DNA of 64,000 nt, from NCBI GenBank assembly GCA_001001555.1, contig LCKS01000004.1, positions 36,130 to 100,129 of the forward strand, written 5' to 3'. The notes under the pieces were generated by a model that was not told the DNA's origin, did not search any database, and worked only from the letters and a program-made list of their open reading frames with translations. Positions 10,857 through 49,466 of the stretch are shown one piece after another. How positions within the stretch are numbered: position 1 is the first letter of the stretch; each line of letters begins with the position of its first letter. The position numbers and the translations under genes were made by a program. This DNA comes from Candidatus Amesbacteria bacterium GW2011_GWC2_45_19 (GTDB taxonomy: Bacteria; Patescibacteriota; Microgenomatia; CAZETR01; Amesbacteraceae).

Positions 10857-10969
10857 AGCGAGCGGGAATGGGATCTGAGCCAGGAGGAGATGGCTTTTAA
10901 TTCAGGCTGGGAATTGTCCACATAAACCATAAAATCGGCGGCTTCTTTAAATATAAATCCCACCTGTAA
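10857..10969 (-). pseudogene. remnant of doc 3' end (diverged duplicate)
   Basis: Minus-strand translation ...FIFKEAADFMVYVDNSQPELKAISSWLRSHSRSL* aligns to Doc residues REKEIVKFMVSVANQNLSVDEISSWLKSN. It starts immediately after the vapC stop. Confidence 0.55.
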
Positions 10970-11359
10970 TTACGGTTCGAGGCGTTTTACCCAATTAAAT
11001 TTACTTAACCCCTTATCATACGAATATATCTCTCTAACATTGTCATCTTTAATAAGAAATATATTCAAACAGTCGGTCCAGTCCACAGTATGAGACTCGT
11101 AAAATTCTATTGCTTTTACAAGTATCATCTTGTTATCAATTTCAATATTAGAAGATATAACTGTTTTCAAACATTTCACGACAACACGTTTATCCAACTC
11201 ATATGCTGACCTTAATACCCACTCAATCTCAGAAAAAACAAAGCTGGAAGTCTGTAAATTTTTCGCTTCTTTTAATAAAGCTTTGCACCTGTCTGATTTG
11301 TTGCCAAACCTCACAAACACTTCAATAAAAATATTAGTATCTACGAATTTATTTACCAT
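10970..11359 (-). CDS. vapC: PIN-domain toxin VapC
   Basis: Starts at internal Met MVNKFVDTNIFIE (the ORF-track N-extension overlaps vapB); acidic PIN residues D..E..D; SYDKG motif. Confidence 0.75.
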   Translation of the reverse strand: MVNKFVDTNIFIEVFVRFGNKSDRCKALLKEAKNLQTSSFVFSEIEWVLRSAYELDKRVVVKCLKTVISSNIEIDNKMILVKAIEFYESHTVDWTDCLNIFLIKDDNVREIYSYDKGLSKFNWVKRLEP

Positions 11360-11615
11360 ATTTCTTGGCGAGTCTTTGGGCTTCTTTTTTCCTAGCGATT
11401 TCAATGATTTGTAATGTTGAATATTTTTTAGAAATAGGATGATTTGCCAAAAGACCCTGCAGACTATCCCAATCATCCTCTGCCTTTTCCAAAAAAATGG
11501 TATTATCTTTAACTTTCGTCCATAATTTACTTCCTTTATTCAGTCCCAATAGGGAGACAATAGATACCGGCAAAGTAAGCTGATTTTTTGAAGTTAACGT
11601 CAATAATGTATTCAT
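11349..11615 (-). CDS. vapB: AbrB/MazE/SpoVT-type antitoxin VapB
   Basis: 88 aa; swapped-hairpin-like N-terminus SKNQLTLPVSIVSLLGL; 11-nt overlap with vapC. Confidence 0.65.
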   Translation of the reverse strand: MNTLLTLTSKNQLTLPVSIVSLLGLNKGSKLWTKVKDNTIFLEKAEDDWDSLQGLLANHPISKKYSTLQIIEIARKKEAQRLAKKYGK

Positions 11616-11618
11616 CCC

Positions 11619-12059
11619 TTACTTTATAACATCTTCCTTACTCTTTGTCAACATCCTTACTTTTATCCTAGAGACCACCAGCATGTATCCGTTGGATTTG
11701 AGCCAGGAGGAGATTTCGTCAACGGAGAGATTTTGATTGGCTACAGAAACCATAAATTTCACTATCTCTTTCTCTCTAGCTGTGATTTTAACTCCGTTTA
11801 GGGATAGAAAGTTGTAAGTAGTAATAAAAGCGGTGCGTTTATTACCATCTATGAAGGGATGATTTTTAACGATAGACTGGATGAGGGCTCCGGCTTTGAG
11901 AAAAATGTCGGGGTATAAGTCCTGGCCATCGAAAGTGGCGAAAGGGCGGAAAATAGCTGACTGAAGCATACTGGTATCCCGAATACCAGAGGATCCGCCG
12001 TATTTTTGGATTGCCCGCTCGTGAACTGCCAAAACCTGTTTAAGAGTAAAACTTATCAC
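11619..12059 (-). CDS. doc: Doc (death-on-curing) Fic-family toxin
   Basis: Fic motif HPFIDGNKRTA; 146 aa. Confidence 0.8.
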   Translation of the reverse strand: MISFTLKQVLAVHERAIQKYGGSSGIRDTSMLQSAIFRPFATFDGQDLYPDIFLKAGALIQSIVKNHPFIDGNKRTAFITTYNFLSLNGVKITAREKEIVKFMVSVANQNLSVDEISSWLKSNGYMLVVSRIKVRMLTKSKEDVIK

Positions 12060-12307
12060 TGAAGTTGGGCTAGTTCTTTGAGAGCGTGACCATAGCGTTT
12101 TTCCACCTCTTTAATTAAATCAAACCACTCTTTATCCGGGGCGGTCGCATATTGGGTGGATCTGGGAATATGGGTAGAATAAGTGATAGATCCGTCTGTG
12201 TGGGCAACGGAAATTTTGGAATTTTTGGTGACTTTGTTTTTGGTGACAAAATCTCTTGGAAGAGTGACACCCAAAGAATTTCCAATTTGGACGACGGATT
12301 GGATCAT
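12056..12307 (-). CDS. AbrB/Phd-type antitoxin partner of Doc
   Basis: QIGNSLGVTLPRDFV swapped-hairpin motif; 4-nt overlap with doc. Confidence 0.65.
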   Translation of the reverse strand: MIQSVVQIGNSLGVTLPRDFVTKNKVTKNSKISVAHTDGSITYSTHIPRSTQYATAPDKEWFDLIKEVEKRYGHALKELAQLQ

Positions 12308-12315
12308 GGGCTTAT

Positions 12316-12343
12316 GTTATAACATGTTATAACGGTTTGTCAA
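12316..12343 (-). promoter_or_regulatory. promoter (-35 TTGACA, -10 TATAAC) overlapping two tandem copies of the palindrome GTTATAAC (putative antitoxin operator)
   Basis: Plus-strand atgttataacatgttataacggtttgtcaa immediately upstream of the antitoxin ATG at 12307; leaderless arrangement. Confidence 0.45.
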
Positions 12344-12363
12344 GAGGGCTTGAGGGGCGTGCC

Positions 12364-12576
12364 CTACTTCGCTTGTGGGCTACGTAAGGGTGAACCGCCG
12401 CGGTGGAAGAAGCGGCGCAGGTGGGTGGAAAGTTCCGGGGGAGATTTACCTTTGAATTGCTTGATAGCGATGCGGATGTCGCGCAGAAGAAGAACTGTTT
12501 CGATGGTTACAAAGACCAGGAGAATGGTCAGGGTGACGATGACTATAACGAGTAAGAATTGAGCCAAATTAGTCAT
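12364..12576 (-). CDS. small single-TM membrane protein (LapA/DUF1049-like?)
   Basis: 70 aa; TM LLVIVIVTLTILLVFVTI followed by a basic tail; abuts rodZ-like gene. Confidence 0.3.
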   Translation of the reverse strand: MTNLAQFLLVIVIVTLTILLVFVTIETVLLLRDIRIAIKQFKGKSPPELSTHLRRFFHRGGSPLRSPQAK

Positions 12577-13205
12577 TTTTTAACAACGGTACGCATCAGA
12601 CTGGCAGTCTTGCCGGACTTGGAAGTAGCCATAATAGAAATAATATTGTCTCCTGGTGTGAGAGGCAGGCGGAGAAAGAAACGGCCGCCTTTTTCCAGAG
12701 CCACCAGCTGGCCGTTAACTGAAACGGTGGCTTCCGGGCTAGTGATACCCACAACTTCAACGGTGGCCTCGGTGGTTTCTTGCCTATCAATTGGCATAAC
12801 TAGGCGCAGAGAAGGCGGGCCGGTGAGCACCCGGTATTGGAAAATGAGATAAGCCCCAAAGAGAGTAAAAATTAGGGCGATGGCGGCAATGATAGTGGTG
12901 CGCGGGGTCCAAAAACTGACTTCACTCACCGGTTTGACCATCCCCCGGGGGATAATTTGCCCTTGCTCGTTTTCCCCAAAATCCCGGCGGAAAATGGCCA
13001 GGATACTTTCCGGCTTTAACTCTAAAAATTCACTGTAATTTCTGATAAATCCCCGGGCTACCGCCCCCGAAGGCAATTGGGTGTAATCGTCGGCTTCGAC
13101 GGCATCTAAAAAGCGGGCCCGGATGCGGGTGATACGGGAAACATCCTTGAGATCCAGCTTTTGAGCGTTACGGGCTGTCTGCAGAATTTGGCCGACTGTT
13201 TTCAT
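12573..13205 (-). CDS. rodZ: RodZ-like HTH (Cro/C1-type) membrane protein
   Basis: N-terminal HTH ILQTARNAQKLDLKDVSRITRIRARFLDAVE, TM, C-terminal DUF4115-like domain. Confidence 0.6.
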   Translation of the reverse strand: MKTVGQILQTARNAQKLDLKDVSRITRIRARFLDAVEADDYTQLPSGAVARGFIRNYSEFLELKPESILAIFRRDFGENEQGQIIPRGMVKPVSEVSFWTPRTTIIAAIALIFTLFGAYLIFQYRVLTGPPSLRLVMPIDRQETTEATVEVVGITSPEATVSVNGQLVALEKGGRFFLRLPLTPGDNIISIMATSKSGKTASLMRTVVKK

Positions 13206-16933: not shown

Positions 16934-16934
16934 G

Positions 16935-17564: not shown

Positions 17565-17586
17565 CTCTCAATAACTCCCTCTCATT

Positions 17587-17610
17587 CTCCCTCTTAATCT
17601 AAGAGGGAGA
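17587..17610. repeat. palindromic hairpin TCTCCCTCTTA-atc-TAAGAGGGAGA overlapping the last codons and stop of the phosphoesterase gene (related to the CCCCCTCCTAA hairpin family)
   Basis: Perfect 10-bp stem; the minus strand reads ...SLLD* through it. Confidence 0.5.
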
Positions 17611-18100
17611 CGCTAGTATAACTGCTAGATAAGGTGTCATAAATTCCAAAAGATGCGGGAGCTAGTTTGCCGGAAATGATGCCGCAGATGGAGCCGGGGT
17701 TGGCAAGCAAAGTTTTGCCTACTTGCTCTTGATAGGCTTTGTGGGTGTGACCGTGGAAAACCGCGTCATAATCTCCCGTTCCGGCCAAAAGTTTGCCGAG
17801 TTTGGGATAATGACAGAAGGCGATTTTTTTACTTTCCAATTCTACTTCGGCAAATTCTTTGGTTAGAGGCCAAAGCTGGACAGCTTTTAATTTTTCGGAA
17901 ATGGCAAATTGATCCTCATCATTATTCCCAAAACAAGCATAAATTGGTAAGGCTGATTCGGCTAAAATTACAGCCGTAAATGGAGCGCAAAAGTCTCCGC
18001 AAAAAATTATGACCTCGCATTTTTGCTCTTTGATTATTTGAATCGCCTTCCGCAGGTTCCAAATATGATCGTGGGTATCTGATAAAACTGCTATTTTCAT
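17594..18100 (-). CDS. metallophosphoesterase (YfcE/MJ0936 family)
   Basis: MKIAVLSDTHD...GDF...GNND...GHTH motif set. Confidence 0.75.
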   Translation of the reverse strand: MKIAVLSDTHDHIWNLRKAIQIIKEQKCEVIIFCGDFCAPFTAVILAESALPIYACFGNNDEDQFAISEKLKAVQLWPLTKEFAEVELESKKIAFCHYPKLGKLLAGTGDYDAVFHGHTHKAYQEQVGKTLLANPGSICGIISGKLAPASFGIYDTLSSSYTSVSLLD

Positions 18101-18219
18101 TAGTAGGTGGGCAGGAATTGTTTGAGATTGTTTTTCATTTCCACACCCAATGGTCCGTAGTCATAAAAGTCCTGCAAGCCTTCGTTTTTGCACAGGCTGA
18201 CAATTTTTTCCATGAGGTC
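18100..18219 (-). pseudogene. remnant of lon-like gene 3' end. The last 28 nt are nearly identical to 19100..19127.
   Basis: Minus-strand [43 protein letters not shown] ends NLKQFLPTY*, identical to the C-terminus of ORF 19096..20076. Its TAA overlaps the ATG of the phosphoesterase gene. Confidence 0.5.
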
Positions 18220-18383
18220 CATGTGTTTAGTTTACAACAAAAAGCTCTTCTTTCCAATTCCGACTCGATTTGTCGTTTGGCGCGGCCGCGACTAACGGCA
18301 AAATTGACGGGTACTGACAAATAGTTTGTGGGGATAAAATACTTCAGTAGTTTTCTCCAACTCAATTTTCTTTTCATCGGTAG

Positions 18384-18803
18384 TCATCGTAAGGGGTTGA
18401 TTACTTTAATATCTTTCATAGGATAGTGCTTGATGTTCATGGTCAAAAGAGTCAGTTTGTGAATTTTGCAAGTTGCGGCGATTAAATAATCTATTAAGTT
18501 AATATTAACGTTTCGATACTTATTCCAATACTCTCCTGCCAGTTTTGCTATCGCGAAGTTTATGGGGACCTGGTTATGCCACTTGAAAAAGTGTCTGTTC
18601 GAGGCCTCTTCTTCGGGAAAAGAATTTTTGTAAATTTCGCCAACCGTTAAGATAGAGATAGCTACGAACTGATCATCCACTATTTTTGAAACTGCTTCAA
18701 TTGCCCTTTCATTCCCCCTGATTATCCAAATTGAGACATCTGAATCAAGTAAAAATCTATCTTTCCTTTTTGGGCTTGGCATAGGGAATATATGAATAAT
18801 CAC
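18384..18803 (-). CDS. PIN-domain toxin (VapC-like)
   Basis: FLLDSDVSIWIIRG N-terminus and DYLIAATCKIHKLTLLTMNIKHY C-terminus; AT-rich. Confidence 0.7.
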   Translation of the reverse strand: MIIHIFPMPSPKRKDRFLLDSDVSIWIIRGNERAIEAVSKIVDDQFVAISILTVGEIYKNSFPEEEASNRHFFKWHNQVPINFAIAKLAGEYWNKYRNVNINLIDYLIAATCKIHKLTLLTMNIKHYPMKDIKVINPLR

Positions 18804-19068
18804 GGTTAGTTGCGGCCCGGCCTTCGTTTACCCAGTTTACAATGTTTTCCATGTTTTCCCATCCAGGCCGGCTTCTTACGCCCAACACACCGGTAAACTT
18901 TCTCAACGCATCCGCATAAGAAACTTTTCTCTTTCTCAATTTCAACTGCTTGCCAACCGCCATAGCCACAAAACGGCTTCTTTGCCTAGTGGACACTTGA
19001 TCTTTCAGGTCTGAGTATAAGTCCCAAGGCAACGTAAAATTCACTCTAGTCGTTGTTTGCATATACAC
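18757..19068 (-). CDS. ribbon-helix-helix (CopG-like) antitoxin
   Basis: TRVNFTLPWDLYSDLKDQVSTRQRSRFVAMAV RHH pattern; overlaps the PIN gene. Confidence 0.6.
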   Translation of the reverse strand: MYMQTTTRVNFTLPWDLYSDLKDQVSTRQRSRFVAMAVGKQLKLRKRKVSYADALRKFTGVLGVRSRPGWENMENIVNWVNEGRAATNRDYSYIPYAKPKKER

Positions 19069-19095
19069 ACTTTATATCACCATTATACACACTTG

Positions 19096-20076
19096 TCAAT
19101 AGGTGGGTAGGAATTGTTTGAGGTTGTCGGCGGTAATATAAAATTGGTTGCCTTTGCCTTCGACTATGAGTTTGGCGGTTTTGCGGACGATGCCCTGGAT
19201 AGTGCGCTCCAGAGTGCGGATACCGGCGTCAAAGCCTAGGGGGCGGACGATTTGGGGCCAAACGGCGTCGTCGATTTTGAGAGCTGAATCCGGAAGAGAA
19301 GCATTTTTAATCTCGATGGGCAAAACGTAATCGCGGGCGATGGTGATTTTTTCCTCGTCGTTGTAGGAGGGCATAGTCAGAGGCTCGAGCCGGTCCATGA
19401 CGGCAGCAGAAATATTGGTAGTGTTGTTACAAGTGGCAATAAACAGAACCTGGGAGAGATCGAAAGGATAATCAATGTAATGATCGGTAAAACCGGCATT
19501 TTGTTCCGGGTCGAGAAGCTCGACCAATACACCCATGATTTCAGAGCGGGCGGAATCGGCCACCCGGTCGATTTCGTCCAGTAAAATTACCGGGTTTTTG
19601 GTTTGGGCCCGGCGCAGATTTTTGATGATTTGGCCCGGCTCGGCGTCGGGGTAAACCCGGGACTGGCCACGCAAGTCTAAGGCCAAGCCCATGCCGCCAA
19701 AGGGAATGCGCACAAATTTTCTGCCCATAGCTTCGGCGATGGATTTGGCCAGAGTGGTTTTGCCGGTACCCACCAGGCCCACCAGCAATAAAATCGGGGC
19801 GTGATAAATGGTGCTTTTTTGCTGATTTAGGATCAGGACTGAGAGATATTCCAGAATGCGTTGTTTTAAATCTTCCAGGCCGTAGTGGTGCCGGTCGAGA
19901 ATTTGCTTGGCGTGACCCAAGTCTAAAATATCTTTGGTGGTTTTGTCCCAGGGAAGATTAGTAATCCAATCAATATAGTGGGCCGCCTGCTCGGGATTGG
20001 TGCCCCGAGTCAAAACCTCTTCGGCTTTGGCCCGCAGGTCATCCGGCAGCGTGGCAGTCTTTAACTTGTCATCCAT
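19096..20076 (-). CDS. Lon-like AAA+ ATPase module (no N-domain, no S16 protease domain)
   Basis: Residue-level match to the Lon AAA+ region: HYGLEDLKQRILEYL, GTGKTTLAKSIAEAMGRKFVRI, ILLDEIDRV, LDPEQNAGFTDHY, ATCNNTTNI, DRLEPL. It ends ([10 protein letters not shown]) exactly where canonical Lon continues into the protease domain. Confidence 0.75.
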   Translation of the reverse strand: MDDKLKTATLPDDLRAKAEEVLTRGTNPEQAAHYIDWITNLPWDKTTKDILDLGHAKQILDRHHYGLEDLKQRILEYLSVLILNQQKSTIYHAPILLLVGLVGTGKTTLAKSIAEAMGRKFVRIPFGGMGLALDLRGQSRVYPDAEPGQIIKNLRRAQTKNPVILLDEIDRVADSARSEIMGVLVELLDPEQNAGFTDHYIDYPFDLSQVLFIATCNNTTNISAAVMDRLEPLTMPSYNDEEKITIARDYVLPIEIKNASLPDSALKIDDAVWPQIVRPLGFDAGIRTLERTIQGIVRKTAKLIVEGKGNQFYITADNLKQFLPTY

Positions 20077-23421: not shown

Positions 23422-24796
23422 GGATAGTGACGGCTATTATAATATCACCGGTCTTGAAGTCAACTGGCGGAGAAAAAACGGCCCCGAATTCCTGGCCGGT
23501 TTTAATTTTTTCAACTTCGGCTTTGCCAATTTTAAGAGATTTTATTTTGGTAATTTTGTCACCGATTTTGATCGAGTTGGTTTTGAGTATTTCTCCTTCG
23601 GTGCATTTACCCCCGGCCACCCGTAGATTGTCTATTTTGAACCCGGCCAGAATCTGGGCCCGGCCGGTAATGGTTTCGGTCTCTTGAGGATGGACTAATT
23701 TTTCTATGGCATCTAAAAGCTCATAAATAACATTAAAAGAGTGGATTTTAACTTTGTCTATTTCGGCTAGTTTGGCGGTGGAGCCGGGAATTTTGACATT
23801 AAAAGCAATTATTTGAGAATTTGTGGAAGTGGCAAAAAGAATGTCAGATTCGGTAACTTCGCCAGTAGCTGACGAAATTAGATTGACTTCCGGGGGTAAC
23901 AAAGAAGTAATGGCCTCAAGAGAACCGAGAGTGTCGGCTTTGAGGATAATTTTGACTATATCACCCTCTCCCTTCGGCCTGCCTGCCGGCAAGGCAGGGT
24001 TTCCCCCTCTTAAATTAAGAGGGGGAACGAAAGGGGGTGATATTTTAGTGATAGCAGAACTTAGTACAGACCCTACAGGGACGACGGAAGTGAGGCCGAG
24101 AATTTCGACGGGGGTAGAAGGCAGAGCAGGATTGACAGACAGGGCCTTGGCTTTACCGACCAATTTGTCTGAAAATAGCTCCTGGCCAACTTTTAAAGTA
24201 CCGTTTTTGACGATGCACATAGCCAAAGGGCCGCGGCGGGTATCCAAGTGAGATTCAAGAACAATACACTCTAGAGAGCCGGAAGGGTCGGAGACTGGAG
24301 GTTGGAGGCTAGAAACTAGATGGACCATCTCCAAAAGTTCAGGCAAGCCCTGGCCGGTTTTGGCAGAAACGGGAATGGCAGGTACGTCACCTCCAAACCC
24401 TTCGACTAAAACTGCGTTTTCAACCAATTGGGATTTGACGGTGTCTGCGGAGGCCCCGGGAAGGTCCATTTTATTAATAGCCACAATCATGGGAATACCG
24501 GCTGATTTAATGGTGGCTATAGATTCTTTGGTCTGGGGCATGACCCCGTCTACGGCGGAAATTACCAAAATAGCAATGTCGGCAATATCAGCTCCCCGGC
24601 TGCGCATTTGAGAAAAAGCAGCGTGTCCCGGCGTGTCGATGAAAGTGATACCGTTCGTCTGGAAAGCGTGAGTGCTTTGGGTTATACCCCCGACTTCACG
24701 AGAGGCGATGTTGGTTTTACACAGAGCATCAAGAAGAAAAGTTTTGCCATGATCTACATGGCCCAAAATGACAACGATAGGTGGTCTGGTTTGCAT
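23408..24796 (-). CDS. infB: translation initiation factor IF-2 (short form starting at the G domain)
   Basis: [28 protein letters not shown] GTPase motifs; 462 aa. Confidence 0.85.
   Translation of the reverse strand: MQTRPPIVVILGHVDHGKTFLLDALCKTNIASREVGGITQSTHAFQTNGITFIDTPGHAAFSQMRSRGADIADIAILVISAVDGVMPQTKESIATIKSAGIPMIVAINKMDLPGASADTVKSQLVENAVLVEGFGGDVPAIPVSAKTGQGLPELLEMVHLVSSLQPPVSDPSGSLECIVLESHLDTRRGPLAMCIVKNGTLKVGQELFSDKLVGKAKALSVNPALPSTPVEILGLTSVVPVGSVLSSAITKISPPFVPPLNLRGGNPALPAGRPKGEGDIVKIILKADTLGSLEAITSLLPPEVNLISSATGEVTESDILFATSTNSQIIAFNVKIPGSTAKLAEIDKVKIHSFNVIYELLDAIEKLVHPQETETITGRAQILAGFKIDNLRVAGGKCTEGEILKTNSIKIGDKITKIKSLKIGKAEVEKIKTGQEFGAVFSPPVDFKTGDIIIAVTIHGAS
23939..24022. mobile_element. 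RPE-like nested palindromic element (TIR TATCACCC/GGGTGATA; inner hairpin CCCCCTCTTAA-tt-TAAGAGGGGG plus CCTGCC-GGCAA-GGCAGG) inserted in-frame within infB
   Basis: About 84 bp (28 codons). Translated within IF2 as ...VPPLNLRGGNPALPAGRPKGEGDIV. A homologous element lies in grpE. Confidence 0.55.
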
Positions 24797-25801: not shown

Positions 25802-25841
25802 TATACCACCCCCACCCTCCCCCTCCTAATCTAGGAGGGGG
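25802..25841. repeat. left inverted repeat TATACCACCCCCACCCTCCCCCTCCTAATCTAGGAGGGGG (contains hairpin CCCCCTCCTAA-tc-TAGGAGGGGG)
   Basis: Inverted partner at 27011..27048; the hairpin overlaps the DUF559 stop (..LTPS*). Confidence 0.6.
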
Positions 25842-26190
25842 TAAGTTCCTTTCTAATCTGGTCCACTACTTTGTCTAAATTGGACTGAACTTCCCAATTC
25901 CAAAATCTAATAACTTTGATGTTAAAAGCCCCTAGATATCTGGTTCTATACGAATCATATTTATAATTTTGCTTGTGTTGCTCGCCATCGAGTTCTATGG
26001 CAAGTTTTTTCTCCGGACAGTAAAAGTCCAAAATATAAAATGTTACACTGTGCTGTCGGCGAAACTTAAAGCCGAGGCGGCTATTTTTCAACTTGCTCCA
26101 AAGCAACCTTTCTTCTCTAGTGCCATAGTTTCTTGACCTCCTTCGTTTTTGTTTGAGTTTAGGAGTATTAAAAATAAATTCTTTTCTCAT
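25831..26190 (-). CDS. DUF559 (Vsr/restriction-endonuclease-like fold) domain protein
   Basis: YILDFYCPEKKLAIELDGEQH core motif; AT-rich. Confidence 0.7.
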   Translation of the reverse strand: MRKEFIFNTPKLKQKRRRSRNYGTREERLLWSKLKNSRLGFKFRRQHSVTFYILDFYCPEKKLAIELDGEQHKQNYKYDSYRTRYLGAFNIKVIRFWNWEVQSNLDKVVDQIRKELTPS

Positions 26191-26260: not shown

Positions 26261-27022
26261 ATGGTCAGTCGTTTGTATTCCGCTATATATTTATTGGAAA
26301 AATTATCTAATTTGGGGGCCATGAAGGTTAATATGCAGTATTTAACGAAAGGTGGCCCGGAATTAAATCACTTTATCGATCGTCAGGCACACCCTGCTAG
26401 AAATGAATATCTTGATATATGCAACCTTAAAAGATTTGTTGAGAGTGGCGAATATGTGATCTCAAATAAATATGTATGTATTTCGACTACATTTGAAACT
26501 TCCGATGTCAAATATAAGGCTTTTATTGGTCTTGATGTGGAGATCGGCGATGAGAAAGTAGTGTTTAATGTTGCCAAGTTTCTCGCACATAAATTAGGTA
26601 AATCGATTGATGTATTTAAAACAACGCGCGGTTTCCACTTTTTTATTCCTGATTTGGTATTTTCTGGTGATTTTGAGTACTTAACGAAAATATTTGAAAT
26701 TGCGAACGATGCTTCTTTGCGGATTGGAGACAAGTGGGTCGCAGGATATTTTGACTGTGTAAAAAAAGCAAAAACTTATAAAGATTTACAACAAATTTCG
26801 CGAGAAATATTAAACAATTTCGGACACTATCAAGCCAGAGGAAAATACACCTTCTTTGACTTAAGACATATCGCTCATGGCATGTTCGAATATGAACGTC
26901 AGCGGGGTATTTCTGATCAGAATAATGGTGTTAGAACACAATTGTTTTTTAGAATAACATCCAAGAACCACAACGATCATCCTCCGGTGTTTATAAAACA
27001 GTTTATTTATTCCCCCTCCTAA
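26261..27022 (+). CDS. hypothetical protein, possible archaeo-eukaryotic primase-polymerase (PrimPol/AEP) domain
   Basis: IGLDVEIGDE (motif I DxE), then about 28 aa later TTRGFHFFIP (motif II sxGxH), then an acidic motif III candidate; AT-rich; start may be an internal Met. Confidence 0.35.
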   Translation: MVSRLYSAIYLLEKLSNLGAMKVNMQYLTKGGPELNHFIDRQAHPARNEYLDICNLKRFVESGEYVISNKYVCISTTFETSDVKYKAFIGLDVEIGDEKVVFNVAKFLAHKLGKSIDVFKTTRGFHFFIPDLVFSGDFEYLTKIFEIANDASLRIGDKWVAGYFDCVKKAKTYKDLQQISREILNNFGHYQARGKYTFFDLRHIAHGMFEYERQRGISDQNNGVRTQLFFRITSKNHNDHPPVFIKQFIYSPS

Positions 27023-27048
27023 GTTAGGAGGGGGACGAGGGGGTGGTA
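27011..27048. repeat. right inverted repeat (hairpin CCCCCTCCTAA-gtt-AGGAGGGGG, spacer ACGA, then GGGGGTGGTA)
   Basis: Its reverse complement TACCACCCCCTCGTCCCCCTCCTAACTTAGGAGGGGG matches the left repeat at 25802; the hairpin supplies the ...SPS* stop of the 253-aa ORF. Confidence 0.6.
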
Positions 27049-27115
27049 CTAGAGAATGTCTGCTAATTCTTCCAGTAAACGTCTTTGTTCGTGGGAAAGA
27101 TGGGCGGGGAGATCG
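27049..27115 (-). pseudogene. remnant of dnaJ 3' end (diverged duplicate)
   Basis: Minus-strand translation VEHFYIDLPAHLSHEQRRLLEELADIL* versus DnaJ C-terminus DFYIRLIIDFPTHLSHRQKQILEEFERS*. Confidence 0.55.
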
Positions 27116-27221
27116 ATGTAGAAATGTTCCACCTAAGAGATGGAACTGCCTAACTATATTAAGCTAGGCGGTCTAATTGTTTATTGACATCTGGTCTTAC
27201 CCTTGTTAACATTAGTTTACA

Positions 27222-27827
27222 ATGGAACAGGGTGATGCGGGTGTTGCTGTTCCCGAAAAGGAAGCGGCCGATGAGACGTTAAGGCCTGTTGTTGACAGGT
27301 TGCTCCTTGACACGCATTTTCGGGAAGTTCCCCTCCCAGATAACTTTGATGGTTGGACTGGCGAAGATCTAAGGAAGCGCCCCAATGAATCTCTGAAGAG
27401 AATGCTTACCCAGGAGGCGGTTGGGGAAGTTCAACAGGCTTTGGGACTAAGTTTTGAATCTAAGTTTAGTGGTCACACTGGTCGCCCATTACCGAAGGCG
27501 GAGACAAAACAAGCTGTTCCTGATTATGAAAGTTGGTCTGCAAGACTAGAGGCTTTAAGAGGAGAAATGGGCGAGAAAGTAAATGAGGCGGAAGCACGAG
27601 GCGTGAGTGTTCCAAGATTTGACGCTGAAACGGGACAGCCCCTGCCCAAAAACTCATTAAGAGTTTATGAGGCCGTGCATGGCAGACGTCAGCCTCAAGA
27701 GGCACCTCCGTCTATGTCTGATCAAGAGGCTCTTGAAATGGGTCTTAGTGCCTTGAGGGAAATGAAGGCCATAAGGCGTGAAGACGAAGCTGCTAGGAAA
27801 TCCGGAGGACTACTGCCCAGATCGTGA
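27222..27827 (+). CDS. hypothetical acidic protein
   Basis: 201 aa, no recognisable motif; higher GC than the neighbouring cassette. Confidence 0.4.
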   Translation: MEQGDAGVAVPEKEAADETLRPVVDRLLLDTHFREVPLPDNFDGWTGEDLRKRPNESLKRMLTQEAVGEVQQALGLSFESKFSGHTGRPLPKAETKQAVPDYESWSARLEALRGEMGEKVNEAEARGVSVPRFDAETGQPLPKNSLRVYEAVHGRRQPQEAPPSMSDQEALEMGLSALREMKAIRREDEAARKSGGLLPRS

Positions 27828-27849
27828 GACGGTAATTTGGGTTACCAAC

Positions 27850-29262
27850 ATGTCAGAAACTACAACCTCAGAGGTTATGGTGCCAAAACAAGCTGCTGAA
27901 CTGGGATTAGAGTTGGTTTACACGGACGAAAGTTCGCACCCCCCATTTAACGTATTACCCAAAGCGTCTATCGGAATACAGAAAAACGGCGAGAAAGCAG
28001 AATTAATAAAAGTTAGCCCGGAACACGGGCGGGCGACGGCAGATGCCAGGCTATTGTCAACAGTCGTGTGGCGTGACGATTTTGGTATACCTTTTGGGTC
28101 GGTGGATTATAAGGGGAACGTCGTGGATGATGTGGTTATTGATACGGATCAAACCGATAAATTAAGGGTGTGTGGAATTAAAACAGGAAAGGTCACCAGA
28201 AGAATTATTGCGGCCTCTCGGGCCTTGAGAGGAATGGGGTTACCAACTGAGGCCATTTACAGGATGTATAAAATTACCTGGTTTCCCGAAAACGGTCGGC
28301 GGATAAGTCCAGAAGAATGGAGAAAACAACTACTAACAGAGCTTGAATCAGATATCGAATTTGCCAGAGAACAGCTGAGGAATCCCTCAACTTACGGCCA
28401 GAAAAAGGATGAACTAGAGGAGCTTTTGGCAAAAGCTGAAGAAGAGGTCAAATTTGTAAAAGGTTATTTGAAGCAGAATGACAATTTCTATGTTTTTGAA
28501 AGGCATCTACAAACACCGATTAGATTACGAGATATCCCGCACGCCAAGACCAAAAATGACTTTGAAAATCTGGCTAAGCAGAGCATGGAGTGGCTTGACA
28601 AAATTCTAACCAGGAGACAACGAGCGAAAACTCCGGTCTGGAATAAGTTGTTACGTAAATCTAAAGACTTATGTTTTGCGCTTTGGCCCTTTTCAGGAGA
28701 CGAAAAATTTGATTTTAATAACTCGGATCATTTATCTCGAGTGTTTGTTGAGTGGCTACCTGCTCAAATGGGACAATACTTAGCGAGGCTACATAAAAAT
28801 GGCTTGATTCATGGTTTTCCCCACTCACAAAACTGGTCCTTGGGAAGTCTTTACGACTTAGACAGTGTGTATGGCCCTGCGTTGGGAGATAACCCGAGAA
28901 CCGAAGATAATTTTGTAAAGGATGTAGAGATTGCGGCAAGAGCCGTCATGGATATCTTTGCTGTACGGGCCCCAGGTTTTGACTGTGTGGGATTGACGGC
29001 AAGTCACTATCTGGCTCAGACGATTCTTGGGCAAAACAAAGATGAACTGCCTTTGGTAAAAGCTGTAGCTAACTTTGAATACGGCTACTTGGAGGCAAGA
29101 TTTAGGAAAAAGCTGACTCCTGCGAATGTTGATGGGTATGTCAGGAGGTATATGCCCCAAGTAAAGGTCGGCGGAGACGTTGTGAGAAGTTGGGCTGCCG
29201 TAAATGAGAGAATTATTAATTTGATTAAGTCTAAACTTTTGGTCTTGCGGGAGACGGGGTGA
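27850..29262 (+). CDS. hypothetical large protein (weak kinase-like HG..H..N / DLD signature, central coiled coil)
   Basis: Probable start at MSETTT after the upstream stop (the track start 27778 overlaps the previous gene); LARLHKNGLIHGFPHSQNWSLGSLYDLDSVYG. Confidence 0.45.
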   Translation: MSETTTSEVMVPKQAAELGLELVYTDESSHPPFNVLPKASIGIQKNGEKAELIKVSPEHGRATADARLLSTVVWRDDFGIPFGSVDYKGNVVDDVVIDTDQTDKLRVCGIKTGKVTRRIIAASRALRGMGLPTEAIYRMYKITWFPENGRRISPEEWRKQLLTELESDIEFAREQLRNPSTYGQKKDELEELLAKAEEEVKFVKGYLKQNDNFYVFERHLQTPIRLRDIPHAKTKNDFENLAKQSMEWLDKILTRRQRAKTPVWNKLLRKSKDLCFALWPFSGDEKFDFNNSDHLSRVFVEWLPAQMGQYLARLHKNGLIHGFPHSQNWSLGSLYDLDSVYGPALGDNPRTEDNFVKDVEIAARAVMDIFAVRAPGFDCVGLTASHYLAQTILGQNKDELPLVKAVANFEYGYLEARFRKKLTPANVDGYVRRYMPQVKVGGDVVRSWAAVNERIINLIKSKLLVLRETG

Positions 29263-29265
29263 TAT

Positions 29266-30096
29266 TTAAGATCTTTCAAACTCTTCCAGTATTTGTTTTT
29301 GGCGGTGGGAGAGGTGGGTGGGGAAATCGATGATGAGACGGATATAGAAATCGCCGCGGTTGGCTACTCCACGGCCGGCCAGGCGAACCATGGTACCGGG
29401 TTGGGTGCCGGGGCGGATTTTAAGCTTTAAGTCCGCGTCTAAGGTAGGGACACTTGTGGTCCCTCCGAGAATAGCCAGGGTGAAAGGAATTTTGTGGTCT
29501 ATATAGATGTCTGCCCCATCGCGGCGGAAAATTAGATCCGGCTCAACTTCAAAAGTAATATCAAAATCGGTAAAACGCAGATGAGTACCGGTATCAGCGC
29601 CGGCGGGAATTTTAATAGCGTGGGTCCGGCCGTCAATGGTGACGCTTTCGGTACCGCCTGAAACTGCCGTTTTAAAAGGAATGCGCAAAGAATAATGAGG
29701 CTTGGCAGGCCGGCTGCGGCCAAAGGGCGAAGCGCCGCCAAAAAATTGTTCAAATATTTCAAAAGGATCGCCCATGTCCCCGAAAGGATTTTGTCCGCCT
29801 CCAGAAGTTGAATAGTAATATTGGAAAGGGCCTTGCTGTTGCCCGGCAAAGCCGGATCCGCCGGAAAAACCACCGGGCGGAGTGTGGCCGAATTGGTCAT
29901 AAGTTTGCTTCTTTTGAGAGTCGGAAAGAACTTGATAAGCCTCGTTTATTTCTTTGAACTTCTCTTCGGCTTCGGGAGACTTATTTTTGTCCGGGTGCCA
30001 CTGCATGGCCATTTTGCGGTAGGCAGATTTGATCTGGGCATCGGAAGCGCCTTTAGAAACACCTAAAATATCATAATAATCACGCTTAGCGGCCAT
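29266..30096 (-). CDS. dnaJ: DnaJ-like co-chaperone (J domain + G/F region + C-terminal domain, no zinc finger)
   Basis: DYYDILGV...HPDKN J domain with HPD; 276 aa. Confidence 0.8.
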   Translation of the reverse strand: MAAKRDYYDILGVSKGASDAQIKSAYRKMAMQWHPDKNKSPEAEEKFKEINEAYQVLSDSQKKQTYDQFGHTPPGGFSGGSGFAGQQQGPFQYYYSTSGGGQNPFGDMGDPFEIFEQFFGGASPFGRSRPAKPHYSLRIPFKTAVSGGTESVTIDGRTHAIKIPAGADTGTHLRFTDFDITFEVEPDLIFRRDGADIYIDHKIPFTLAILGGTTSVPTLDADLKLKIRPGTQPGTMVRLAGRGVANRGDFYIRLIIDFPTHLSHRQKQILEEFERS

Positions 30097-30211: not shown

Positions 30212-30847
30212 TCAAGCAAACAGAGAGCTTTCTCCGATAATCAGGGACTTAATAATATCATAGTAACTGCTGTCTCCATATTCGTACTTTCTAAAAATTG
30301 ACCAGCTAATAAAATCGGTCGCTTGTAAAGACTTCTCTTCGTGGGGAGTTTTTATTATTACCTGTAGTTTGTGTTTATGATTCACCTTGATCTTATCAGC
30401 CAGGTACGATTTGAAATTTTCGTTCAAAAAACGATTTGTTTCCTTTCTGGAAGCTATCAGTGTTAAATTGTCCAGAGGAACTAACTTATTTTCATAAATT
30501 CTATTCAATAGGATATTAGTTACATAGTTGTACAAGACACTCTTCTCTTCTTGAAGTTTGGTATAAACTTTCTTCTTGTTTAGATATATAACCATAATTT
30601 GGCAGTCTCTGCCTGCCAATTCCCGAAGTAATCGGAATCTGGTTGTGGGCGACTCTTTATGACAATGAAGCACTCCGCTTTTCTTTTTGTGAATTTTTTT
30701 AAGTCCCGTATGAATTTTTGATACTAATTTTTCAATTAGGCGTTTTTCCTTGCAAAATAGAAATGTGACCAAAAACCATTGAGTGGTTCTCTTTTTGCTA
30801 AAGTCAAAACCTAAGTCTCCACTCTCATCCATGAATATATACGCCAT
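30212..30847 (-). CDS. DUF3800 family protein
   Basis: N-terminal MAYIFMDESGDLGF (DESG motif); strongly AT-rich; the track start 30886 probably extends too far. Confidence 0.5.
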   Translation of the reverse strand: MAYIFMDESGDLGFDFSKKRTTQWFLVTFLFCKEKRLIEKLVSKIHTGLKKIHKKKSGVLHCHKESPTTRFRLLRELAGRDCQIMVIYLNKKKVYTKLQEEKSVLYNYVTNILLNRIYENKLVPLDNLTLIASRKETNRFLNENFKSYLADKIKVNHKHKLQVIIKTPHEEKSLQATDFISWSIFRKYEYGDSSYYDIIKSLIIGESSLFA

Positions 30848-31188
30848 CTTACTGGCAATTGTACCCCGCGAGTGCCAAATTGACAAATTTTAAACATTGA
30901 GTAAGATACGAATATATGAGTTCTCAAATCGAATATGTGCTAACACGAGAAAGAGGCACTTGGGTTGATTGGTTTGTTCGGATAACATCGGTGGGGTTTT
31001 TGGGTTGGGAGAAAAATCTGGTTTCTAATACATGGGGAATGACATCTGGACCCGATGTTTCTGCGCCCAGAAAATCAGGGAGTTTCTATTGGTGGTTTTT
31101 TGGTCTGGGATGAAAGTAGAGATTGTGGAAAAGACCGAAGGTTGATACAATTGAAGAAAGCTAATTGGCTTTATTTTTTTGACCTCTT

Positions 31189-41878: not shown

Positions 41879-41882
41879 AAAT

Positions 41883-43352: not shown

Positions 43353-43353
43353 A

Positions 43354-44640: not shown

Positions 44641-45179
44641 ACATAATTTTGCTGGGACCACAGGGGTCGGGAAAGGGAACGCAGGCGGCACTACTAGCCG
44701 AGAGGTTTGGGCTGCAGCATTTTGAAGCGGGAAAGATTTTGCGCAGCATTGCCGATTCTGATAATCAGCATGCCTCCGCCGTAAAAGCGGCGGCTAACTC
44801 GGGAAACTTGGTGCCGGATGAACTGGTGAGGTTAATTGCCTGGAACTTTGTTAACAAACACAGAAACGGCGGGTTTGTTTTTGACGGATATCCCAGATCA
44901 GCGGCCCAATACGAACATTTGCAGGATATGTTAATGAAATTTGGACAAAAAATTGACCGGGTGATTGACCTGGAAATTTCACAGGCGGAAACTATTAAAA
45001 GGCTGGCGAAAAGAGGAAGGGAAGATGATACGCCGGAAGCAATTAAAAAAAGGTTGGAGCTGTTTAGATTGCAGACAGAGCCGGTGATAGAAAAAGCCAG
45101 ACAAGACGGAATACTTCTGGAAATTGACGGAGAAAGACCGATCGACGTAATCCACCGGGACATGGTGAGTAAATTATGA
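44637..45179 (+). CDS. adk: adenylate kinase (short-lid form)
   Basis: [12 protein letters not shown]-loop, VFDGYPR. Confidence 0.85.
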
Positions 45180-45925: not shown

Positions 45926-46131
45926 TTTTTGAGGTAGAGGGAGAAGTCGTAGAAAATCTACCTAATACCTCTTTCCGGGTCAAATTAAACGGCTCGGAAA
46001 AAGTTGTATTGTGCCACTTGGCAGGCAAGATGAGAATCCACTGGATCCGCCTGTTGCCTGGGGACAAAGTAAGAGTGGCTATGGCAGGTCCTAACGAAAC
46101 ATTAGGCAGAATTATTTATAAATTAAAGTGA
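45910..46131 (+). CDS. infA: translation initiation factor IF-1
   Basis: S1-like fold; [20 protein letters not shown]...KMR. Confidence 0.85.
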
Positions 46132-46241
46132 AAGTCCAAGCATCCATCAAAACCAGGTGCAGAAACTGCAAAATTGTGAAGCGGAAAGGGGTGTTATTTG
46201 TAATTTGCACCAACCCCAAGCATAAGCAACGCCAAGGATAA
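46127..46241 (+). CDS. rpmJ: 50S ribosomal protein L36 (GTG start; not in ORF track)
   Basis: Own translation [37 protein letters not shown]. Confidence 0.7.
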
Positions 46242-46243
46242 AT

Positions 46244-46651
46244 ATGCCCAGAATCGCCGGACGAGACATTCCCGAGAACAAAAAAATAGAGTTTTCCCTG
46301 CGGTACATATATGGCATTGGGCCGACGAACGCTGCCGGAATTTTAGCCAAAGCAAAACTGGATACGAATAAAAGAACGAAAGACCTGACGGCGGAGGAGC
46401 TGGCCAGACTGCAAAAAGCAGTAGACGAAGTAAAAGTGGAGGGGGACTTGAGAAAAACTGTCCAGCAAAATATATCCAGGTTAAAGGAGATTGGGTCGTA
46501 TCGGGGCCACCGGCACGCTAAGGGATTACCTGTTCGGGGGCAACGAACGCGGACTAATGCCCGGACTAAGAGAGGTAAAAGAATGACCATCGGGGCGCTG
46601 AAGAAAGAGGTGTTAGCTACCAAGGAACCTAAAGTGGAGGAAAAGAAATGA
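46244..46651 (+). CDS. rpsM: 30S ribosomal protein S13
   Basis: [16 protein letters not shown]. Confidence 0.9.
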
Positions 46652-46989
46652 CCGGCAAAGCCTTTATTACGGCCACTTTTAATAACACCCTGGTGACTAT
46701 TACAGACATGGCGGGAAATGCTATTGCCTGGGGATCGGCAGGAGCGGCCGGATTTAAGGGCGCCCGCCGGGCTACTCCGTACGCGGCTACGACGGCAGTC
46801 GAAGTGGTGGCCAGAAAAGCCATGACAGCGGGAATTAAGGAAGTGGAGGTATATTTGAAAGGCCCGGGATCTGGACGAGACGCGGCCCTAAGAGCGTTAA
46901 AAGCGGCAGGATTAAAAATGAATCTGATTGCCGACGTAACGCCAGTTCCGCATAACGGAGTCAGGCCGAGTAAAAAGAGAAGAGTTTAG
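46648..46989 (+). CDS. rpsK: 30S ribosomal protein S11
   Basis: [18 protein letters not shown]. Confidence 0.9.
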
Positions 46990-47024
46990 TTTACCACTTC
47001 CCCTTCTTCGGCTTTTTTGGCGTC
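46987..47024 (-). pseudogene. remnant of dnaK 3' end (38 bp, 2 mismatches to 47590..47627)
   Basis: The reverse complement reads ...[12 protein letters not shown], identical to the DnaK C-terminus. Its first TAG also serves as the rpsK stop. Confidence 0.55.
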
Positions 47025-47058
47025 ATATGTTGGGCTAGTTGCTTGTTATAATGGGAAG

Positions 47059-47592
47059 ATGTTCAAAATATCGCGTTTGCATGTTTTTATCGCAACATCT
47101 TTGGGGGTAGGAGTTCTTATTGGATTTTTAATAGGGAGATATGTTAAGCCGAGGGTAGTTTATATAAAAAAAGAGAAAGAAAAGGTTGTCGTAAAATACG
47201 CTGAAGAAACAGCTGAAAACAGGATAATAAGATGTGGTTTCATCCCAGAAAATTTTAGGACAAACCAGGATCACTTTAGTGTAGTGTCAGGGCCCGATTG
47301 GTCCCCTGACTGCAGGTATATTGCTTGGGGTTTTTGGCAGTCGGGAACTTCATGGCTAGGAGATGATACTCAAGTTGTGTGGGAAAGAAAGTTGGATCAG
47401 CGGGAAGGTTTATATTTATACAACGATCGGACGGGGCGGACTAGAAAAATATACGCCCCTAAAGAACTAGATGAAAGCGTGACTTTTAACAAGTGGGTCG
47501 ATAGTGGTTCTATTGAGTTCGCTGCTAAAAGAATTGGGTATGTGTACGATATCGCGTCCGGTAAAATATCTATACAAGAAAATGGCTATTAG
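47059..47592 (+). CDS. hypothetical membrane-anchored protein
   Basis: Start at [29 protein letters not shown] (the track begins at an upstream TTG); TATAAT 7 nt upstream of the ATG; AT-rich; no motif. Confidence 0.45.
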
Positions 47593-49466
47593 TTTACTAC
47601 TTCCCCTTCCTCGGCTTTTTTGGCGTCGGCTGGTTTTTCTTCCGCGGGTTTTTCTTCTGTGGGAGGTGGGGTTTGCTTATACATTTCGGCCCCTAATTTT
47701 TGCAAAGAATCCATGAGGTCTTTGGATTTGGCTTCCAGATCTTCTTTGGTGCCGGATTCGAGAATATCTTTGAGAGCTTTTACTTTATCTTCTACCTCGG
47801 TTTTAAGTTCAGCCGGGGCTTTGTCGCCGGCATCTTTGAGAGTTTTTTCGGCGGTAAAAATTAAAGAATCTGCCTGGTTTTTGGATTCGATCTTGGTTTT
47901 CTTTTCGGCGTCTTCGGCGGCGTGGGCTTCGGCTTCTTTGCGCATTCTTTCCACTTCTTTTTCATCGAGGTTTGTGGAGTTGGTAATGGAAATGTGCTGC
48001 ATTTTGCTCGTAGCTTTGTCGAGGGCTTTGACATTAAGAATACCGGAGGCGTCAATATCGAAAGTAACTTCGATCTGGGGCACGCCACGGGGGGCAGGAG
48101 GAATACCATCCAGAATAAAGCGGCCGAGAGTTTTGTTATCCGCGGCCATGGGGCGTTCGCCCTGAAGGACGTGGATTTCGACGGAGGTCTGAGAATCAGC
48201 GGCGGTGGAAAAAACTTGAGATTTAGAAGTGGGAATAGTGGTATTCCTCTCTATAAGAGGGGTCATGACCGATCCGAGAGTCTCCAGCCCCAGGGTCAAA
48301 GGGGTGACGTCCAAAAGAACTACATCTTTGACATCGCCTGTGAGAACGCCGCCCTGAATGGCGGCGCCGACGGCCACCACTTCGTCGGGATTGACAGACT
48401 TGTTAGGCTCTTTGCCAAAGAATTTCTTGACCACTTCAATAACAGCCGGCATGCGGGTCATCCCGCCGACCAGGACCACTTCGTTAATTTTAGAAGTATC
48501 GATTTTGGCGTCCTTAAGACAGGCTTTAACTGGAGCAACGGTTTTTTGAATTAGGGAATCCACTAAAGCTTCTAATTTGGCCCGGGTGAGTTTGAGATTT
48601 AAATGCAGGGGTTGGCCGTTATTCTGAGTAATATACGGCTGATTGATCTCTGTTTCCATGGCCGAAGACAGTTCGATTTTGGCTTTCTCGGCGGCGTCGC
48701 GGACGCGCTGCAGAGCTTGGGTGTCTTTTTTAAGGTCCACACCGTTATCTTTCTTGAACTCCGAAACTATCCAATCCATAATTACCTGGTCAAAATCGTC
48801 TCCCCCTAAGTGGGTGTCGCCGTTGGTGGCTTTGACTTCAAAAACGCCGTCGCCCAGTTCGAGGACGGAAATGTCAAAAGTACCGCCACCCAGATCATAG
48901 ACGGCCACGGTGTGGGCATTTTTCTTGTCCAGACCGTAAGCCAGGGCCGCGGCGGTGGGTTCATTAATTATTCTTTCGACTTTCAGGCCGGCGATTTCCC
49001 CGGCTTGCTTGGTAGCTTGGCGCTGGGAGTCATCAAAATAAGCTGGGACGGTAATCACGGCCCGGTCGACGGTGCCACCCAGGTAAGACTCGGCGTGGGC
49101 TTTCATGATTTGCAGAATCTTGGCGGAGATTTCCTGGGGAGTGTAAGTCTTACCTTCGACCTCGACGCAAGCCATATTGTCTTTGCCGGCCACGATTTTG
49201 TAGGGCACCATTTCCATGGTGCGCTTGACTTCGGGGTCGGAAAACTTGCGGCCCATCAAACGTTTGATGGAGTAGATAGTGTTTTTGGAATTTAAGATCA
49301 TCTGGCGTTTGGCGACTTCGCCCACCAGATTTTTGACCGGTTCCACAATAGAGGGGGTGGTGTTGCGGCCGGTGTCCGCAGCGGGGATAACCTTGGGAGT
49401 CCCCCCCTCCATAACGGCCACACAGCTATTAGTGGTCCCCAAATCAATTCCGATTATCTTTGACAT
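47589..49466 (-). CDS. dnaK: molecular chaperone DnaK (Hsp70)
   Basis: [22 protein letters not shown], Hsp70 signatures; 625 aa. Confidence 0.95.

Follow-up and report, generated by a model that had tools for sequence, protein, structure and literature searches.

At four places in a 64,000-nucleotide stretch of the genome of Candidatus Amesbacteria bacterium GW2011_GWC2_45_19 (contig LCKS01000004.1; the whole stretch is called the window below), a gene is followed by an accessory cassette and then by a second, short copy of that gene's own 3′ end. The genes concerned are doc, a lon-like gene, dnaJ and dnaK, and the host, a Microgenomates member of the Candidate Phyla Radiation (CPR), has a genome that was assembled from groundwater of the Rifle aquifer. 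Comparison with related metagenome loci (L006-L103) indicates that at all four sites the short copy beyond the cassette is the native terminus, still in place, and that the cassette brought with it the terminus now carried by the complete gene. This incoming terminus appears to be an allele of other lineages; inserts contain fragments of donor-type flank, and at lon a microhomology and filler DNA mark an illegitimate joint. We consider it rather probable, if by no means assured, that these structures are the scars left by terminal displacement, and that the cell's general recombination with DNA of related lineages produced them, not the enzyme of a mobile element.

The genomes of CPR bacteria (Patescibacteria) are tiny and dense and contain few classical mobile elements, but strain-specific toxin-antitoxin and defence genes are numerous in them. 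If our reading is correct, the scars are a legible record of how such accessory genes enter, namely by recombination with relatives at the extreme ends of conserved genes. Terminal displacement, so far known from polymorphic-toxin loci, would thereby be extended to housekeeping genes, and scanning for remnants could locate recent gene gain in metagenome-assembled genomes.

The four gene ends and their counterparts in relatives

The backbone gene order of the window (dnaJ-nusA-infB-...-rpsO-pnp-lon-(pde)-udg-rnj-ftsK-rodZ-...-alaS, where pde is a metallophosphoesterase gene) is kept across about 80 related metagenome loci, and intergenic space in these genomes is nearly nil, with neighbours 0-25 nt apart or overlapping. 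A sequence-only reading of the window had proposed the recurring arrangement and placed it at positions 10857-47627. The end of that range truncates dnaK, which reaches 49466. All four of the gene-end copies that it reported beyond the cassettes were recovered by repeat search and local alignment (Table 1). Among the direct-repeat families in 41 kb, the dnaJ pair ranks first, the dnaK pair third (family D3) and the lon pair sixth (D6), and the doc pair shows up as two collinear families. When the last 120 nt of each gene were aligned to the 3 kb downstream, all four pairs scored above 300 of 300 shuffles (z = 6.0, 9.7, 13.0 and 19.8). The structure is reproduced with 99.3-100% identity in independent assemblies from several samples (MEGAHIT k127, NCBI, JGI), and the assembly k of 127 exceeds the repeat length. 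Contigs of other same-species assemblies end at window positions 12147 and 12175, inside the phd-doc import described below, and at 18387 and 18510, at the border of the PIN gene and the udg fragment; these ends suggest strain variation within the population at precisely these cassettes.

Exact-protein look-ups of pde and rpsK returned the same species only, always with the cassettes, and hence no empty sites. A scan of a genome collection with PNPase gave only five loci, which were decisive for dnaJ and doc. Over the whole set of related loci, empty or differently occupied sites were found for all four genes. None of the observations that would have spoken against the arrangement emerged, be it remnants without cassettes in relatives, similarity no better than that of shuffled sequence, or an origin by tandem duplication.

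At dnaK, three relatives whose DnaK is 93% identical (L096, L097 and L098) have dnaK and rpsK convergent with overlapping stops and no cassette open reading frame (ORF) between them. The empty-site sequence of L096 and L098 (...GAAGAAGGGGAAGTGGTAAACTAAACTCTTCTCTTTTT...) is the same as the junction of remnant and rpsK in the window; therefore, the dnaK remnant is the native terminus, never moved. The two differences between the dnaK copies (GAG and GTA) both lie in the copy on the complete gene and are derived and synonymous with respect to L095 and L096. L095, with a DnaK of 96% identity, holds another gene in the slot, of the 23S_rRNA_IVP family. The somewhat more distant L103 has the same antisense ORF as the window (83% amino acid identity) in the same layout with a decayed dnaK remnant, and it also has a relic of the L095-type cassette beside rpsK.

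At dnaJ, the remnant together with its hairpin matches the intact dnaJ end and hairpin of L012 at 90.8% identity over 109 nt (E = 3e-39). The last 60-nt window of the complete dnaJ is 85% identical to L010/L015 and 75% to L012; over most of the upstream part of the gene, L012 is the nearer. A hairpin (GTTCCAYCTCTTAGGTGGAAC) that stands right after the dnaJ stop in L010 and L015 lies, in the window, between the two-gene island and the remnant. The incoming piece would therefore have consisted of a donor-type terminus, the island and a donor-type downstream flank. At the joint there is a match, GGYG(G)AAC/GGCGAC, that is weaker than the microhomology at lon described below. fusA, dnaJ and nusA are adjacent in L006 and L010, which thus have the site empty, and the island was not found in L006, L010, L012 or L015. 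The 494-aa protein encoded in the island (27778-29262) has remote relatives in at least 356 representative clusters (exhaustive HMMER search, E up to 0.001), and ten sampled relatives matched no Pfam family.

The doc locus differs from what had been described as a cassette inserted behind a complete doc, in that the complete doc is itself an import. Its protein is 91% identical to the Doc of L026/L027 and only 48% identical to the native Doc of L006/L008 and L015. The tract comprising phd and doc (12333-11691) is 83% identical to L026 in nucleotide sequence, as against 65% for the flanking rodZ, and the window doc departs from the L026 doc after ...SSWLKS. The remnant resembles native doc instead (81% over 95 nt in L006, 88% over 74 nt in L008/L015), and vapBC was not found at the doc position in L006, L015 or L026. 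A foreign phd-doc pair plus vapBC has thus replaced most of a resident phd-doc pair, of which the last 95 nt of doc were left. The "diverged duplicates" that had been noted at doc and dnaJ do differ from the complete genes' ends, but as different terminus alleles and not as decayed copies; that at dnaJ is an alternative allele, the resident one. Between alaS and the doc remnant, on the opposite strand (9896-10689), lie two further genes and a 91-aa ORF. The two genes encode a Phd/YefM-type antitoxin (assigned by eye, no Pfam match) and a ParE/RelE toxin, and with phd-doc and vapBC they form a toxin-antitoxin island of low GC content (0.36-0.39).

At lon, the order in the window is lon, RHH-PIN, a udg fragment, filler, the lon remnant, pde and udg. 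The RHH-PIN cassette was correctly seen earlier; the udg and GlyRS fragments that share the insert had been missed. The RHH-PIN pair also follows lon in L006 (82% nucleotide identity), and it stands in other orders in L012, L023, L024 and L028. The udg fragment, directly 3′ of the PIN stop, is 86-91% identical to the start region of udg in L008, L012, L014, L017, L018 and L020, and in L012 udg itself directly follows PIN. Beyond it lie about 200 nt of filler, including the GlyRS piece, a 21-residue stretch of which matches residues 27-47 of the T. thermophilus GlyRS (E = 2e-6); no glyS gene occurs in the window or in any fetched locus. The GlyRS stretch ...KNNLKQ meets the lon remnant, in frame, at a 12-nt microhomology (AAYCTCAAACAA), and the remnant continues into pde exactly as does the lon-pde junction of L041. 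In L041 pde adjoins lon, and in L007 one small ORF lies between them. The locus is thus a stack of two alternative alleles of the lon slot, put together via an illegitimate joint.

The GlyRS fragment and the lon remnant together make an intact 40-codon ORF with its own ATG (18100-18222), the stop of which overlaps the pde start (TAATG). This ORF could keep pde translationally coupled after the insertion, and it is likely a spurious small gene in annotations; short remnant ORFs of this sort are best treated as annotation artefacts and not as genes.

The lon-udg slot as a whole is variable. In distant relatives udg or rnj starts 0-25 nt after lon. Relatives at the level of Amesbacteria have 250-3300 nt between lon and udg, occupied by varying and reordered sets drawn from at least ten gene families, which include RHH-PIN, MNT-HEPN, pde and a deformylase-like gene; whichever gene comes first in these relatives usually overlaps the lon stop. 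A gene of about 311 aa stands just upstream of udg in three relatives (L019, 5308-6243; L024, 13339-14283; L028, 9671-10552) and carries a LAGLIDADG-like motif (...YVLGFTFADGNI...), read by eye only. As a candidate homing-type endonuclease, its product could add to the instability of the slot.

Table 1. Features of the four loci, with positions counted from the first letter of the window
Locus	Feature	Position	Strand	Basis or remark
doc	Repeat pair	11694-11756 and 10871-10933		Local alignment
doc	phd-type (AbrB/MazE) antitoxin	12056-12307	-	Pfam MazE_antitoxin; imported together with doc
doc	Complete doc (Fic/Doc toxin), imported allele, last codons from the cassette side	11619-12059	-	Pfam Fic
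doc	vapBC cassette	10970-11615	-	VapB, AbrB-type, 11349-11615 (Pfam MazE_antitoxin); VapC 10970-11359 (PIN)
doc	Displaced native doc terminus, 95 nt, ending ...KEAADFMVYVDNSQPELKAISSWLRSHSRSL and stop	10854-10949	-	Comparison with relatives
lon	Repeat pair, 26/28 identical	19100-19127 and 18104-18131		Local alignment
lon	Lon-like AAA+ gene; last 28 nt (19100-19127) are repeat copy 1	19096-20076	-	ORF; Pfam AAA, Lon_lid
lon	RHH-PIN cassette	18384-19068	-	RHH-like antitoxin 18757-19068; PIN toxin 18384-18803 (Pfam PIN)
lon	udg 5′ fragment, 37 nt, donor flank imported with the cassette	18351-18387	-	Similarity to udg starts
lon	Ectopic GlyRS N-terminal fragment (filler)	18132-18222	-	In-frame fusion to the lon remnant at AAYCTCAAACAA
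lon	Displaced native lon terminus; stop overlaps pde start (TAATG)	18104-18131	-	26/28 versus copy 1
lon	Metallophosphoesterase gene (pde), resident downstream gene	17594-18100	-	Pfam Metallophos
dnaJ	Repeat pair, 54-nt core, 78%	29253-29332 and 27037-27118		Local alignment
dnaJ	dnaJ; 3′ end (29253-29332) is repeat copy 1, L010/L015-like	29266-30096	-	Window identity comparison
dnaJ	Two-gene island (201 aa, 494 aa; no Pfam match)	27222-29262	+	Convergent with dnaJ
dnaJ	Hairpin T1 (GTTCCATCTCTTAGGTGGAAC), donor-type flank	27126-27146	-	Same hairpin in L010/L015
dnaJ	Displaced native dnaJ terminus (...DLPAHLSHEQRRLLEELADIL and stop) with its own downstream hairpin	27010-27118	-	L012 match
dnaK	Repeat pair, 37/39 identical	47589-47627 and 46986-47024		Local alignment
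dnaK	dnaK; last 39 nt (47589-47627) are repeat copy 1	47589-49466	-	Repeat family D3
dnaK	Cassette: 177-aa membrane-anchored ORF (191 aa from TTG at 47017)	47059-47592	+	Antisense to dnaK; no Pfam match
dnaK	Displaced native dnaK terminus; stop overlaps rpsK stop	46986-47024	-	Matches L096/L098 empty site

Recurrence in other lineages and the MNT-HEPN cassette

The suspicion that the arrangement is recurrent and general was borne out by a survey of 663 ORFs (79 non-redundant loci and the window), in which the last 60 nt of each ORF were compared with the same strand 100-4000 nt downstream. An ungapped score of at least 15 was reached at 13 of the 663 gene ends and at none of the 663 in either control, whether internal segments or reverse complements were used. 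The matches in L055, L009 and L029 were rejected as cassette scars, being tandem paralogues. With these three set aside, about ten cassette scars remain, at lon, dnaJ and dnaK. A 32-nt copy of the dnaJ end was found in L075, and in an array of L088 one gene after another either ends in a dnaJ-end copy or is followed by one. Remnants of the 5′ ends of downstream genes gave few true cases, and the scars are thus mainly those of 3′ ends. Scars of the same kind occur in unrelated samples and lineages.

One cassette, MNT-HEPN, is preceded by the lon stop and followed by a 22-42 nt copy of the lon end in L015, L017, L024 and L028, each time with a different gene downstream. Between L017 and L024 the cassettes are 88-98% identical, the lon flanks about 75%, and the downstream DNA is unrelated; the segment that they have in common terminates exactly at both repeats. 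Across lineages, the right-hand lon-end copies share ACATATT(A/G)A and the left-hand copies TACTAG. In L028 the cassette is as diverged as the backbone. The comparison shows horizontal exchange, between diverged lineages, of an MNT-HEPN unit bounded by repeats, and this exchange is the strongest argument for a repeat-mediated route. The last eight codons of lon rank 8th of 330 windows for third-position conservation, as might be expected of a recombination substrate; the signal is modest, and suggestive without being decisive.

Routes of cassette entry

In the mechanism that we favour, DNA would enter, probably by natural transformation, from a related Amesbacteria lineage that has another accessory cassette in the same slot. 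It would pair with the resident chromosome via the 3′ region of the conserved gene and undergo a homologous crossover on that side, and its far end would be joined a few dozen nucleotides before the resident stop codon, through either short homology or illegitimate recombination. The product would be a complete gene with an imported terminus, the cassette, sometimes donor downstream flank or filler, and then the resident terminus and the resident downstream gene. The incoming molecule could be linear, as in homology-facilitated illegitimate recombination (HFIR), or circular, in which case a single crossover would integrate it. The proposed mechanism needs DNA uptake. PilN- and PilO-like genes in the window (57025-58124) would fit a type IV pilus capable of serving that purpose, a circumstantial point.

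Selective filters may set the length of the remnant (25-110 nt). Joints further downstream would be lost because they destroy the start of the next gene or the overlapping stop of a convergent one, and long identical repeats because recombination would delete them again. In line with such a filter, the two near-identical repeats measure only 28 and 39 nt, and the copies of greater length (63-109 nt) are diverged alleles. The resident terminus would be kept because the start of the next gene lies in it.

Several observations weigh against this mechanism. Insertions in the same slots can be free of remnants, as in L095 (between dnaK and rpsK), in L096 (HicAB) and in L006 and L012 (lon). The left crossover is unmapped: sliding-window identity switches only weakly near the dnaJ and lon ends and not at all for dnaK. 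By these weak signals, the part of dnaJ and lon that looks non-native is confined to about their last 60 nt, and the imported tract within dnaJ is seemingly shorter than about 100 nt, little for a classical HFIR anchor. A word-based search for the donor of the two-gene island returned the same species only. Finally, the right joint of MNT-HEPN is always 0-4 nt past the HEPN stop, in four downstream contexts; a repeat-mediated route, by way of a circle or of alternative pairing, therefore fits this cassette better than do independent illegitimate joints.

Such a route can be stated more generally. The last 25-45 nt of conserved genes could act as portable addresses for integrase-free cassettes, which host recombination would excise, re-insert and stack into integron-like arrays. 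A cassette might travel as a circle closed between two repeats and integrate by a single RecA-type crossover, or a linear repeat-cassette-repeat molecule might pair with the repeats of two sister chromatids. We regard this as a tentative alternative with a real but minor chance of being right. The constant bounding of MNT-HEPN by lon-end copies, the sharp ends of the L017/L024 segment, the copy-specific motifs, the L088 array and the third-position conservation of lon all speak for it. There is also precedent for its steps: a circle has been proposed for the tips of Rhs proteins (PMC2935791), single crossovers of circles duplicate 109-950 bp in E. coli (PMC3240628), and alternative repeat pairing in pneumococcal transformation yields repeat-bridged duplications (PMC3784515). 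Against it, repeats of 23-42 nt are at or under the usual minimum for RecA recombination, no circular form was observed, and the third-position signal is modest. Parts of the MNT-HEPN pattern might also arise from ancient vertical inheritance combined with gene conversion, given that the L028 cassette is as diverged as its backbone. Moreover, the lon, dnaJ and doc inserts of the window carry donor flanks, filler and an illegitimate joint, and therefore at least the founding events would not have been repeat-mediated. If true, this alternative would amount to an integrase-free cassette system able to cross between lineages despite about 25% divergence in the flanking genes, and to a general route by which CPR genomes, poor in mobile elements, trade defence genes.

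Displacement by general recombination has also to be set against dedicated integration. The topology resembles that of islands at tRNA and tmRNA genes, as the sequence-only reading had pointed out: the incoming DNA restores the 3′ end of its target, and the native one remains at the far border, an order that fits dnaK, dnaJ, doc and lon. The likeness to integrase-driven att-site islands goes no further. As had been noted before, no integrase, recombinase or transposase was matched by Pfam in the cassettes or the other scanned ORFs of the window. ARAGORN found no tRNA or tmRNA in the window, and Rfam gave no match there; the cassette borders have no terminal inverted repeats and no conserved imperfect palindrome, and no sequence motif is common to all four repeats. 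Nor do the cassettes behave as discrete elements, for the inserts include pieces of donor flank and filler DNA joined at microhomology. Integration at the gene ends as attL and attR, by a tyrosine or serine recombinase encoded elsewhere or by Xer, is thus very improbable in our estimation. Direct repeats of 28 and 39 nt at lon and dnaK are of typical att-core size, but the doc and dnaJ copies are different alleles, the doc case is the replacement of a whole gene pair, and the repeats at the lon site vary from 22 to 42 nt between lineages. An integron cassette was rejected on the absence of intI and of attC-like palindromes at the borders, and on the repeats being coding 3′ ends of different genes; transposons, insertion sequences and miniature inverted-repeat elements were rejected for want of terminal inverted repeats and a transposase, and for duplications of variable length (28-109 nt).

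Ordinary tandem duplication of a gene end or slot, followed by divergence or replacement of one copy, is hard to credit. True tandem paralogues with repeated 3′ ends do exist in L055, and the lon locus is formally two units that each run from a lon end to a udg start. The DNA between the copies, however, is unrelated to the host gene and differs by unit (RHH-PIN versus pde), the diverged copies match intact alleles of other lineages, and a glyS fragment sits ectopically at the joint. To chance similarity or a chimeric assembly we attach next to no weight. The window does come from a metagenome-assembled genome, and contigs of other assemblies end at cassette borders; against this, no shuffle reached the score of any of the four pairs, the survey controls never reached 15, assemblies with a k longer than the repeats gave an identical structure, and unrelated samples and lineages have scars of the same kind.

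Displacement of gene ends by general recombination has known counterparts. HFIR has reportedly been described in transformable bacteria by de Vries and Wackernagel in 2002 and by Prudhomme et al. in 2002. It accompanies the uptake of linear DNA in transformation and depends on RecA. Like the loci reported here, it combines one homologous anchor with a second end joined at a few nucleotides of microhomology, sometimes with filler; such a microhomology, with ectopic filler, is what the joint of the glyS fragment and the lon remnant displays. Unlike them, HFIR is a laboratory phenomenon, usually accompanied by deletion in the recipient, whereas every event retained here is a short duplication and the anchors may have been very short.

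Jackson et al. (2009) found C-terminal displacement at rhs and orphan cdiA-CT/cdiI loci and proposed host homologous recombination via a circle (PMC2935791). There, as here, foreign DNA separates a complete gene from a displaced, older 3′ end that retains a short conserved piece, successive events build arrays and no dedicated recombinase takes part. The dissociated end appears to be the older and the attached end laterally acquired at dnaK, dnaJ, doc and the lon-pde junction as well. The hosts differ, however, being dnaK, dnaJ, a lon-like gene and the toxin-antitoxin toxin gene doc instead of polymorphic toxins; the displaced tip comprises no more than 9-30 codons and lacks a function of its own; the gain is a free-standing cassette, not a new C-terminal domain; and illegitimate joints and donor flanks are visible. 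In Vibrio, the effector-immunity arrays of the type VI secretion system grow by HFIR (Kirchberger et al. 2017; PMC5361080). They too have an upstream conserved anchor and an illegitimate far joint, with the old downstream genes and a 3′ remnant pushed back; there, an old effector is displaced and its immunity gene kept under selection, whereas here the remnant is seemingly kept only for the start of the next gene or an overlapping stop.

The minimal mobile elements of Neisseria are alternative cassettes that lack mobility genes, share one slot between conserved genes and are exchanged by transformation and recombination (PMC3787668). Similarly, the gene content of the lon-udg, dnaJ-nusA and dnaK-rpsK slots varies among relatives, and no mobility genes are present. 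The Neisseria exchange is a clean double crossover without duplicated ends, whereas duplications occur at the four loci of the window and in several relatives; some other insertions here are clean too. Islands at tRNA and tmRNA genes differ from the present loci by their integrase, tRNA target and discrete inserts, and apparently also by a fixed att core.

Other insertions and gene order in the window

A fifth insertion may lie beside the dnaJ locus. A 23-nt palindromic hairpin (CCCCCTCCTAAnnTAGGAGGGGG) occurs at 25819-25841 and at 27012-27034, with related copies at 24002-24025 and 17590-17606; the hairpin pattern has 7 matches against 0.1 expected. The first pair brackets a DUF559 endonuclease-like gene (25831-26190) and a 253-aa ORF (26261-27022). 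L012 has the same hairpin pair around the DUF559 block, and the block is missing in L006 and L015. The event may have duplicated an intergenic terminator rather than a gene end.

On the other side of dnaJ, a DUF3800 gene (30212-30886) lies between the divergent starts of fusA and dnaJ. This intergenic region is only about 68 nt in L006, L010, L012 and L015, and in L024 it holds another gene. A motif upstream of the DUF3800 insert (TTGGCACTCGCGGGGTACA) resembles the native dnaJ promoter region (TTAGCAGTCTTGGGGTACAAT).

An AAA_14/DUF4143 ATPase gene (52113-53318) lies between lepA and a GH39 gene, which overlap directly in L096 and L100; the GC skew of the stretch around it is strongly negative (-0.32). 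In the window lepA ends in ...FLSILKVN and not in ...FLSILASTPTAPRS, and no lepA remnant is present at this site, as no secY remnant is at the HicAB insertion of L096. The AAA_14/DUF4143 insertion swapped the last codons of lepA without leaving a duplicate.

Between dnaJ and dnaK, which with everything in between span 29266-49466, the window has 17 kb of ribosomal-protein genes on the other strand, and rpsK is followed by the convergent dnaK instead of by rpsD-rpoA. In the more distant relatives L044, L071 and L100, hrcA-grpE-dnaK-dnaJ are contiguous.

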